From the NCBI GenBank assembly GCA_964016885.1, contig OZ024744.1, forward strand, positions 8,804,001 to 8,868,000: a DNA stretch of 64,000 nucleotides. The letters run 5' to 3'. Shown here one piece after another: positions 1 through 3,500 of this stretch (positions are counted from its first letter, which is position 1; every line of letters starts with the position of its first letter). Source of the DNA: Eledone cirrhosa. Lineage: Eukaryota. A program made the position numbers and the translations under genes. A model generated the notes under the pieces. The model searched no databases. It worked only from the letters and a program-made list of their open reading frames with translations, and had not been told where the DNA came from.

Positions 1-541
1 GCTTCTGTCATCTTACCATCCCACTCCTACCGACTAGCCTCAGTGTCACGTGATTGATTCTTTAGAATCTACCATTTGACCAGTGACAGCGAGATGTTCA
101 GTGCATGGAATCCAGTCCCCGCTAGCTGTTCCATTTACCGAATTATTATTATTTTTATATGAGTCCCCAGTGTCCGCGCATTGCCTGGAGACTTAGCTGA
201 GAATAGACCTCCCTGATGACGCAATGAATTCTCAACAGTTTATTACGTAACTGTCTTTATCCCATTGCAGAAACTAATTAGTTGGAGTGAAAATTTTAGT
301 AAGTAAGTTAATTTTTAAAAAGTTTTTTTAATTTTCTTATTTTACGTCTTTTATATTATTGTTCTGCATCCTCCTGCATTGAACCACCTAGGTACTATGA
401 CATATCCTGTGTATTTGCTGACATTAGCGTACATCTGTGCGCATATGTTAGTAGATATACTATATTCTCTATATTTATCTCCAAATCACTTTGTCTAGCA
501 AACCTGCCAAAACCACTACTAAATTTTTGGTGTGTTAGTAG
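1..541 (+). repeat. Reference monomer (541 bp, arbitrary phase)
   Basis: First full period; the next copy starts at 542. About 202 of 541 bases are G+C by hand count. It contains AT-rich blocks at 141-160 and 290-360. Confidence 0.98.
209..287 (+). ncRNA. Type I hammerhead ribozyme-like motif (monomer 1 copy), predicted cleavage after U283
   Basis: CTCC (209-212) pairs with GGAG (284-287) as stem I. CTGATGA is at 213-219. GCAATG (221-226) pairs with CATTGC (263-268) as stem II, enclosing ACAGTT (235-240)/AACTGT (249-254). GAAA is at 270-273. A273-C274-T275 pair with A280-G281-T282 as stem III with loop AATT. The NUH triplet is GTT at 281-283. Deviations are the C220/A269 mismatch at positions 10.1/11.1 and GUU rather than GUC/GUA. 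Confidence 0.75.
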
Positions 542-3500
542 GCTTCTGTCATCTTACCATCCCACTCCTACCGACTAGCCTCATTGTCACGTGATTGATT
601 CTTTAGAATCTACCATTTGACCAGTGACAGCGAGATTTTCAGTGCATGGAATCCAGTCCCCGCTAGCTGTTCCATTTACCGAATTATTATTATTTTTATA
701 TGAGTCCCCAGTGTGCGCGCATTGGCTGGAGACTTAGCTGAGAATAGACCTCCCTGATGACGCAATGAATTCTCAACAGTTTATTACGTAACAGTCTTTA
801 TCCCATTGCAGAAACTAATTAGTTGGAGTGAAAATTTTAGTAAAAAGTTAATTTTAAAAAATTTTTTTTTAAATTTCTTATTTTACGTCTTTTATATTAT
901 TGTTCTGCATCCTCCTGCATTGAACCACCTAGGTACTATGACATAACCTGTGTATTTGCTGACATTAGCGTACATCTGTGCGCATATGTTAGTAGATATA
1001 CTAAATTCTCTATATTTATCTCCAAATCACTTTGTCGAGCAAACCTGCCAAAACCACTACTAAATTTTTGGTGTGTTAGTAGGCTTCTGTCATCTTACCA
1101 TCCCACTCCTACCGACTAGCCTCATTGTCACGTGATTGATTCTTTAGAATCTACCATTTGACCAGTGACAGCGAGATTTTGAGTGCATGGAATCCAGTCC
1201 CCGCTAGCTGTTCCATTTACCGAATTATTATTATTTTTATATGAGTCCCCAGTGTCCGCGCATTGCCTGGAGACTTAGCTGAGAATAGACCTCCCTGATG
1301 ACGCAATGAATTCTCAACAGTTTATTACGTAACTGTCTTTATCCCATTGCAGAAACTAATTAGTTGGAGTGAACATTTTAGTAAGTAAGTTAATTTTTAA
1401 AAAATTTTTTAAATCTTCTTATTTTACGTCTTTTATATTATTGTTCTGCATCCTCCTGCATTGAACCACCTAGGTACTATGACATAACCTGTGTATTTGC
1501 TGACATTAGCGTACATCTGTGCGCATATGTTAGTAGATATACTAAATTCTCTATATTTATCTCCAAATCACTTTGTCGAGTAAACCTGCCAAAACCACTA
1601 CTAAATTTTTGGTGTGTTAGTAGGCTTCTGTCATCTTACCATCCCACTCCTACCGACTAGCCTCAGTGTCACGTGATTGATTTTTTAGAATCTACCATTT
1701 GACCAGTGACAGCGAGATTTTCAGTGCATGGAATCCAGTCCCCGCTAGCTGTTCCATTTACCGAATTATTATTATTTTTATATGAGTCCCCAGTGTCCGC
1801 GCATTGCCTGGAGACTTAGCTGAGAATAGACCTCCCTGATGACGCAATGAATTCTCAACAGTTTATTACGTAACTGTCTTTATCCCATTGCAGAAACTAA
1901 TTAGTTGGAGTGAAAATTTTAGTAAGTAAGTTAATTTTTAAAAAGTTTTTTTAATTTTCTTATTTTACGTCTTTTATATTATTGTTCTGCATCCTCCTGC
2001 ATTGAACCACCAAGGTACTATGACATAACCTGTGTATTTGCTGACATCAGCGTACATCTGTGCGCATATGTTAGTAGATATACGAAATTCTCTATATTTA
2101 TCTCCAAATCACTTTGTCGAGCAAACCTGCCAAAACCAGTACTAAATTTTTGGTGTGTTAGTAGGCTTCTGTCATCTTACCATCCCACTCCTACCGACTA
2201 GCCTCAGTGTCACGTGATTGATTCTTTAGAATCTACCATTTGACCAGTGACAGCGAGATGTTCAGTGCATGGAATCCAGTCCCCGCTAGCTGTTCCATTT
2301 ACCGAATTATTATTATTTTTATATGAGTCCCCAGTGTCCGCGCATTGCCTGGAGACTTAGCTGAGAATAGACCTACTGATGACGCAATGAATTCTCAACA
2401 GTTTATTACGTAACTGTCTTTATCCCATTGCAGAAACTAATTAGTTGCAGTGAAAATTTTAGTAAGTTAATTTTTTAAAAATTTTTTAAAATTTTCTTAT
2501 TTTACGTCTTTTATATTATTGTTCTGCATCCTCCTGCATTGAACCACCTAGGTACTATGACATATCCTGTGTATTTGCTGACATTAGCGTCCATCTGTGC
2601 GCATATGTTAGTAGATATACTAAATTCTCTATATTTATCTCCAAATCACTTTGTCGAGCAAACCTGCCAAAACCACTACTAAATTTTTGGTGTGTTAGTA
2701 GGCTTCTGTCATCTTACCATCCCACTCCTACCGACTAGCCTGAGTGTCACGTGATTGATTCTTTAGAATCTACCATTTGACCAGTGACAGCGAGATTTTC
2801 AGTGCATGGAATCCAGTCCCCGCTAGCTGTTCCATTTACCGAATTATTATTATTTTTATATGAGTCCCCAGTGTCCGCGCATTGCTTGGAGACTTAGCTG
2901 AGAATAGACCTCCCTGATGACGCAATGAATTCTCAACAGTTTATTACGTAACTGTCTTTATCCCATTGCAGAAACTAATTAGTTGGAGTGAACATTTTAG
3001 TAAGTTAATTTTTAAAAAATTTTTTTAAATCTTCTTATTTTACGTCTTTTATATTATTGTTCTGCATCCTCCTGCATTGAACCACCTAGGTACTATGACA
3101 TAACCTGTGTATTTGCTGACATTAGCGTACATCTGTGCGCATATGTTAGTAGATATACTAAATTCTCTATATATATCTCCAAATCACTTTGTCGAGCAAA
3201 CCTGCCAAAACCACTACTAAATTTTTGGTGTGTTAGTAGGCTTCTGTCATCTTACCATCCCACTCCTACCGACTAGCCTCATTGTCACGTGATTGATTCT
3301 TTAGAATCTACCATTTGACCAGTGACAGCGAGATTTTCAGTGCATGGAATCCAGTCCCCGCTAGCTGTTCCATTTACCGAATTATTATTATTTTTATATG
3401 AGTCCCCAGTGTCCGCGCATTGCCTGGAGACTTAGCTGAGAATAGACCTCCCTGATGGCGCAATGAATTCTCAACAGTTTATTAAGTAACTGTCTTTATC

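Follow-up and report, generated by a model that had tools for sequence, protein, structure and literature searches.

The 541-bp unit repeated throughout the window (the whole 64,000-nt stretch of DNA analysed here) is, by sequence criteria, a non-LTR retrozyme with unusually clear signs of Penelope-type mobilisation. It is a short non-coding tandem repeat in which two or more successive units carry a type I hammerhead (with CUGANGA, GAAA and NUH in the order of that type), and it belongs to a dispersed mobile family. The dispersed copies display the marks of mobilisation by Penelope-like elements (PLEs), namely 5′ truncation, an inverted arm and a tail on one end; homology to the pseudo-LTR (pLTR) of an autonomous PLE was not found in the four families checked. 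We consider it likely that the unit represents a non-autonomous retroelement, of the type known as non-LTR retrozymes, whose movement depends on the reverse transcriptase (RT)–endonuclease of a PLE, and that one of its insertions expanded into the array described here.

The repeat unit and its hammerhead

The window (G000:C28:8,804,001-8,868,000; assembly size, 3.0 Gb) is filled from 1 to 64000 by 118 full units and one partial unit of approximately 541 bp each, arranged head to tail on a single strand (+). The units are 96–99% identical to the first (1–541), and 92 of the 118 full units have distinct sequences. The window forms the inner part of a larger array of approximately 199.6 kb and 369 units (G000:C28:8,782,639-8,982,194), which was inspected at both ends, across the window and through probes in between (through probes only for 8,868,000-8,950,000). 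Tandem Repeats Finder did not report the 541-bp unit (period limit, 500), and a comparison of five PLE protein sequences with 46 units gave no tblastn matches at E < 0.05. The unit also contains a hypervariable A/T homopolymer tract (305–335), whose length in the GCAATG subfamily far exceeds that in the other subfamilies and which differs even among tandem copies within one insertion, and a TGTCACGTGATTGATTC block (44–60) with a CACGTG core, which is well conserved between subfamilies and is a candidate internal promoter element.

The hammerhead occupies positions 209–287 of the + strand, with a predicted cut at 283/284, after GUU, that would give a processed monomer spanning 284–824 (+). Stem I (209–212/284–287) encloses the core sequence CUGAUGA (213–219), which is extended by an extra C between A9 and G10.1 (213–220 in all). 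The helix II region (221–268) comprises a stem (221–226/263–268), an 8 × 8 internal loop and a distal covarying hairpin (235–240/249–254). An extra A269, GAAA (270–273) and a 10-nt palindrome (273–282) make up most of the 3′ part (269–283), with stem III at 273–275/280–282 and U17 at 283. Beyond this core, a tentative Watson–Crick pseudoknot (198–234) would pair 198–204, located 5′ of stem I, with 228–234 in the 5′ strand of the helix II internal loop, and stem I may extend distally (191–304) through pairing of 191–195 with 300–304, which are conserved without two-sided changes.

A sequence-only reading of this DNA had placed the core elements and the three stems in type I order, and all were found at the positions claimed. 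It had also seen no equivalent core on the − strand, in agreement with our own type I descriptor (stems of 4, 6 and 3 pairs), which matched at 90 sites, all of them on the + strand. The judgement that such a match is very unlikely by chance was confirmed by shuffling: none of 40,000 shuffled strands (20,000 dinucleotide shuffles) reached 4/6/3; a loose 3/3/2 descriptor with G–U pairs allowed gave 42 passes among 40,000 shuffled strands. The statement that the fold is present in every monomer stands for the homologous motif, found in 119 of 119 units (a circular count, because the model was partly built from unit 1), but not for an intact fold, as all 39 critical positions are retained in 89 of 118 units. 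G285C, which breaks stem I, occurs in 21 of the 118 full units.

Other parts of that reading had to be revised. The Rfam search that it proposed gave no matches at the gathering score in the window and four weak matches in 100–700 (E up to 10), none of which was a hammerhead; the long loop II and the extra bases probably fall outside the models, and a match to an Rfam hammerhead model is no biological criterion. The supposed C–A mismatch at 10.1/11.1 is not a defect, given that G221–C268 forms the canonical G10.1–C11.1 pair and the additional bases are a C that follows A9 and an A that precedes G12. This A is a fixed trait of the family, and the suggested repair of A269 to G would create a non-natural variant, because a non-A base occurs in only 58 genome matches compared with approximately 12,800 matches to the family patterns. 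Two features had been overlooked: positions 273–282 form a perfect 10-nt palindrome, and stem II resumes past the 8 × 8 internal loop.

Variation among the copies of the mobile family follows the fold. All 68 distinct copies carry the extra C after A9; among them, helix I shows C–G/U–A and U–G changes and core position 7 is variable (U in 53, C in 14 and G in 1); hammerheads tolerate variation at position 7. Helix II is fully paired (100%) in 43 aligned copies, with all four Watson–Crick types at pair 2 (GC 15, AU 10, UA 10 and CG 8) and either UA (26) or GC (17) at pair 5, such that two of its six pairs have two-sided changes. In this alignment, the rows of which were hand-picked from 73 listed copies and the window's own (mostly one per locus), 97% of the cells are paired and 73 cells are two-sided, compared with 22.1 in shuffles, a control that ignores the relatedness of copies, and at most 11 in slid controls. 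A tree of 98 rows forms a ladder of subfamilies, on which the helix II changes represent a handful of successive events. The invariance of helix III is uninformative because it was fixed by the search pattern. Invariance of the core is likewise partly built in, because its 3′ half was specified in the search patterns and its 5′ half was demanded at extraction; the helix II and position 7 results are unaffected. Catalytic residues are kept in subfamilies that are 71–90% identical to the window unit (14 full units compared). We regard it as virtually certain that the hammerhead is under structural selection in the mobile family. The two strands of the candidate pseudoknot, which would span 5–7 bp, are paired in 96.7% of cells, with a change from G–C to A–U in 5 of the 43 copies that represents a single event, because the copies carrying it form one clade; the proposed Watson–Crick contact between loop 1 and loop 2 is tentative.

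In folding models, the palindrome can fold within one unit as a 3-bp helix III or join two units through a 10-bp helix (energies of +1.5 as a hairpin and −9.0 as a duplex). The hammerhead fold of a single unit lies 2.5 kcal/mol above a misfold that pairs the core with the palindrome. For two units, the double hammerhead was calculated at −41.0 kcal/mol, whereas a pair of single hammerheads gives −29.0 and a pair of misfolded monomers −34.0. The lowest energy for two units (−43.6) nevertheless belongs to a longer duplex rather than to the double hammerhead. Cleavage as a dimer would be the likeliest mode, by analogy with the axolotl retrozymes described in PMC7229834. The circular monomer folds better than its shuffles (z = −3.6; 40 shuffles). 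An upstream decoy (179–190) pairing with stems I and II was considered and discarded (ensemble probability, 0.0).

The dispersed family, its insertion footprint and a candidate helper

The pattern of the ribozyme 3′ half had 4,419 exact matches in the genome and that of the sister subfamilies had 8,349, with none for the reversed controls in either case, which amounts to approximately 12,800 motif matches for the family in a 3-Gb genome. The matches listed (100 per pattern) are all on C1, and most of the loci examined are thus from C1; one set of 29 loci spans 12 contigs. Family variants are present in three sequencing runs from one sample of unrecorded kind. A group of 30 loci with a variant stem I consists of ordinary mutated copies. 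Forward matches exceed reverse matches by 641 and 363 for the two patterns, and the C28 array accounts for approximately 300 of the first excess only; further large single-strand arrays of the family may exist elsewhere in the genome.

Dispersed copies contain 1–4 units, are 5′-truncated, frequently have an inverted arm and lie inside (TA)n tracts; the flanking (TA)n hides any target-site duplication, which in non-LTR retrozymes exceeds 4 bp when present. In 46 of the 48 rows listed, the terminal 3′ end gives way to (TA)n at one of two distances from the predicted cut, +73 or +195. End site A (+73, window position 356; 352–367, +) and end site B (+195, window position 478; 470–484, +) both consist of TATAT followed by an invariant block (in 14/14 units for A and in the 14 units compared for B), and the 122-nt tail between them contains a long hairpin (409–460, +), the inner stem of which has compensatory changes in three pairs. 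The first set of junctions (n = 55) comprised 41 pairs with one A and one B end, one apparent A/A pair and 13 with an arm that ended elsewhere or was broken in the alignment; on re-inspection, the A/A pair (L083) proved to be a fragmented alignment. The two-end rule was predicted beforehand for 40 new loci, in which 15 of 15 classifiable pairs (18 junctions) were A+B. Across all loci, one A and one B end were found in 78 of 78 classifiable pairs (97 junctions, 19 of which were unclassifiable). Both arms mostly carry the same variant, with six or fewer differences in approximately 150 nt in 14 of 17 pairs, compared with a mean of 23 between insertions. The dispersed family, 5′ truncation, inverted arms, (TA)n ends and two-end rule strongly support the origin from a retrozyme or Penelope-type element that the sequence-only reading had put forward, and we hold PLE-type mobilisation of the unit with very high confidence.

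Some junctions have further features. The inversion is symmetric at L026, L087, L143, L204, L208, L209 and L215, where the arms stop at a near-identical position of the unit, suggesting a snap-back step. One insertion junction is present twice in opposite orientation (L162 and L163; G000:C1:212.04 Mb and 212.99 Mb), suggesting a segmental duplication.

The same genome holds many intact 821-aa open reading frames (ORFs) with RW, DKT and CxCX5C motifs, which are criteria of the Hydra clade of PLEs (PMC8557442, section 11); assignment of the element to Neptune was rejected, as the motifs fit Hydra instead. The 821-aa element (L121–L127; for example, G000:C5:28,063,800-28,070,800) has its own type I hammerhead, with the palindrome AUGCGCAU, and ends in (TA)n at approximately +45 and +134, approximately 89 nt apart, with one end per arm in four of four two-armed cases. 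Pfam does not recognise the protein; its putative RT and endonuclease are suggested by the motifs and by weak similarity to a 796-aa protein (E values of 2e-5 and 0.004). Searches with BLASTN, tblastn and an RNA model found no homologous autonomous parent of the unit among three Hydra-type families and the 796-aa RT/GIY-YIG family, and the genome contains more PLE families than the four sampled for homology. Because these four autonomous families have no homology to the unit, we infer the helper from shared behaviour only; it is probably a Hydra-clade PLE protein.

The 796-aa RT/GIY-YIG element (L031–L036) has an overlapping upstream ORF of >400 aa and a microsatellite-rich 3′ end, and a pattern search found no hammerhead at its ends. 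Other hammerhead-like families are present in the genome (L171:1959 and 2604; L165, L167 and L126; L168, L173 and L179; L169 and L172), and one has a 645-bp tandem unit with the palindrome ACCAUGGU and a long helix II.

Origin of the array and the proposed cycle

The C28 array has the footprint of an insertion at both of its own ends. On the left, an inverted 206-bp arm ends at +73 in (TA)n; on the right, 199.6 kb away, the array stops at +195 in (TA)n. In the 98-row tree, the array units nest inside one dispersed subfamily, where a single dispersed copy shares their clade. A search with a 34-nt array pattern gave 275 matches, with 38 among those listed on contigs before C28; the total is consistent with approximately 369 units of which roughly two thirds match. 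A246 is found in 59 of 118 array units and in 0 of 54 dispersed segments (30 loci of the array's own variant), other array-internal alleles occur in 1 of 55 (position 285) and 3 of 55 (position 292) dispersed segments, and G439 is present in 118 of 118 array units compared with 1 of 50 dispersed segments. Because the array-internal alleles and the fixed G439 are essentially absent from them, the sampled dispersed copies were not seeded by the array, which is a dead end. Given the footprint at both ends and this lack of seeding, the array is best read as one insertion amplified in place, and its origin from a single insertion is highly probable. Near-identical runs of units recur at lags 2–20, indicating repeated block duplication at the DNA level; 23 variants are each present in at least 10 units, and no adjacent pair is identical. 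Variant load does not differ detectably between the critical ribozyme columns (10 variants in 39 columns) and the others (99 in 465; p = 0.59, low power). Contrary to one caveat of the sequence-only reading, the motif is not vestigial in the mobile family, but selection on it leaves no trace in the array itself.

In each of the two regions that flank the array (L129:950-1138 and L133:695-780), the end of another repeat (…TTACACAAATATGACCCTCCCC…) points inward at (TA)n. A repeat end of the TTACACAAATATGACCCTCCCC type also lies beside L027, and the repeat is probably another element that shares the (TA)n target.

We propose a cycle in which tandem copies would be transcribed as multimers and the hammerhead would cut after GUU at 283, mainly as a double hammerhead with neighbouring units paired through the 10-nt palindrome; part of the RNA would be left uncut or circularised. 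A helper protein, most likely of the (TA)n-targeting Hydra clade, would nick a (TA)n tract on both strands; from each nick, cDNA would be primed within the RNA at a UAUAU, with +73 serving one nick and +195 the other. Both cDNAs would end at variable points and be joined head to head. The single C28 insertion would later have grown to approximately 370 units through DNA-level duplication, to become the decaying satellite of today. Hammerhead cleavage in vivo seems fairly likely to us, and for circular RNA from the unit we see even chances. The complete combination is put forward as a tentative possibility: Hydra-type priming at two obligatory sites 122 nt apart on multimeric or circular ribozyme-processed RNA, 5′ ends made by the ribozyme as the cause of a pile-up of truncations (see below), a dimer-dependent ribozyme with a pseudoknot and a fixed pair of C and A insertions, a 200-kb satellite from one insertion, and a helper that recognises structure rather than pLTR homology.

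The extent of cutting is where the main alternative departs from this cycle. The unit could be a PLE-mobilised pseudo-LTR derivative in which the fold acts as a signal, structural or protein-binding, and cleaves seldom if at all, with uncut linear multimers as the template and no circles. The misfolded monomer is energetically favoured, and for the sole PLE tested biochemically, PMC11167929 describes cleavage that needed protein, was dispensable for insertion in vitro and left no RNA ends at the site. Truncation points of dispersed copies bear on both readings. Of 57 arm encounters with an upstream cleavage site, 45 read through, as expected without cutting, and 12 stop at +1 to +20 past the predicted cut, compared with 2.2 expected (115 arms; P = 3e-6, or 9e-5 after 27 bins), an excess 3′ of the cut that was noticed post hoc. 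Replication at new loci was underpowered (approximately a dozen encounters), with 0 versus 0.15 ends at +1 to +20 for two-armed insertions and 1 versus 0.6 for all arms; the '+1' stops at L095 and L145 are mapping artefacts. The pile-up hints at cleavage, and RT stalling at the ribozyme edge or at the AAAATTTT palindrome (+7 to +14) would also explain it. Retention of all catalytic residues across the divergent subfamilies argues against a fold that does not cut (the 5′ half of the core lay outside the patterns, but was required at extraction), and we think that such a fold is rather unlikely. A chance motif match in an ordinary satellite would agree with the lack of an Rfam hammerhead here, but is contradicted by the shuffled strands, none of which matched, and refuted by the compensatory changes, position 7 being variable; its probability is negligible.

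Amplification of one insertion in place also has to be weighed against two other accounts of the array. One rolling-circle reverse transcription of a circular monomer could have written all 200 kb, which both array ends would fit, and tandem copies in young dispersed insertions can be near-identical (1–8 differences per approximately 480 nt at four loci). The dispersed arms seen hold at most approximately four units, however, and the block structure of the array, with its lags of 2 to 20, shared variants and absence of identical neighbours, disfavours a single event of this kind, which we consider very improbable. That the array is functional, either as the master source of copies or as a host-adopted locus that produces abundant ribozyme-processed RNA, is improbable too: 89 of the 118 units are intact and a dimeric ribozyme needs a tandem arrangement, but A246 and G439 are essentially missing from dispersed loci of the array's variant, and variants load critical ribozyme positions as they do the rest of the unit (low power, as above). 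With duplication of a single insertion preferred, the array represents a clean case of satellite birth, in which both ends of the founding insertion are kept around approximately 370 units. If the joint reading with Hydra-type priming is true, the family records the life cycle of a retrozyme in DNA and the satellite can be traced end to end to one insertion.

Comparison with known systems

The unit resembles the metazoan non-LTR retrozymes, including newt and axolotl satellite 2, as described in PMC7229834 and the preprint 10.64898/2026.07.22.740005, in having a non-coding tandem unit (GC content, 37%), one type I hammerhead per unit with a weak palindromic helix III, forms ranging from monomers to long multimers, and co-occurrence with PLEs. 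At 541 bp, it is longer than the 170–400-nt retrozyme RNAs tested in 2020 (PMC7229834); the preprint gives family lengths of 51–972 bp and arrays of up to 300 units, and reports that eight of nine Xenopus retrozyme dimers were uncleaved in vitro. The machinery that moves animal retrozymes has so far been argued from co-occurrence and pLTR homology, the evidence on which the preprint already proposes a PLE origin with local amplification, and according to a 2020 review (PMC7761336) no motif in retrozyme repeats reveals the identity of the helper. In the present family, it is the footprint of insertion that implicates Penelope-type machinery, probably of the Hydra clade. A further difference lies in the insertion ends, which are mapped for this unit ((TA)n target, inverted arm and two fixed ends). 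In the literature covered by our search, which left most subscription papers outside, we found no retrozyme described as obeying an obligatory two-end rule, no tails of this length and no large array mapped at both of its founding ends.

PLE hammerheads are characterised in PMC4209133 by a long helix II, a short helix I, an extra base after A9, a G10.1–C11.1 pair and a palindromic helix III, and the unit bears all five marks. Unlike the pseudo-LTR hammerheads described there, it has another inserted base ahead of G12, its helix II includes a large internal loop as well as a distal hairpin, a Watson–Crick loop contact is a candidate feature, and it lacks an ORF. A Watson–Crick pseudoknot also organises the helix I/II side of the pseudoknot hammerhead in PDB 8YDC (PMC11300833); in that structure it replaces helix II, whereas the unit has a full 6-bp helix II and the proposed contact, which is weakly supported, would be distal.

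The unit also shares behaviour with the Hydra clade of PLEs, for which Craig et al. 2021 (PMC8557442) report (TA)n insertion; for PLEs in general, that source lists as signatures partial tandems, copies in inverted orientation and a tail at one end. Like these elements, the unit targets (TA)n, is truncated at the 5′ side, occurs as partial tandems accompanied by an inverted 5′-truncated copy and carries a tail at one end; unlike them, it lacks coding capacity, and none of the four autonomous families checked is homologous to it in sequence. The question of the helper can be tested in vitro, because an intact candidate is present in the same genome, the RNA is defined, two start sites are predicted and the target is known. 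The 122-nt tail of the unit and that of the local Hydra element (approximately 89 nt) are long compared with the 30–40 bp described for PLEs. Frangieh et al. 2024 (PMC11167929) traced the PLE tail in vitro to two start sites of the RT, and the strict rule of one end per arm constrains how PLEs form their inverted ends and tails.
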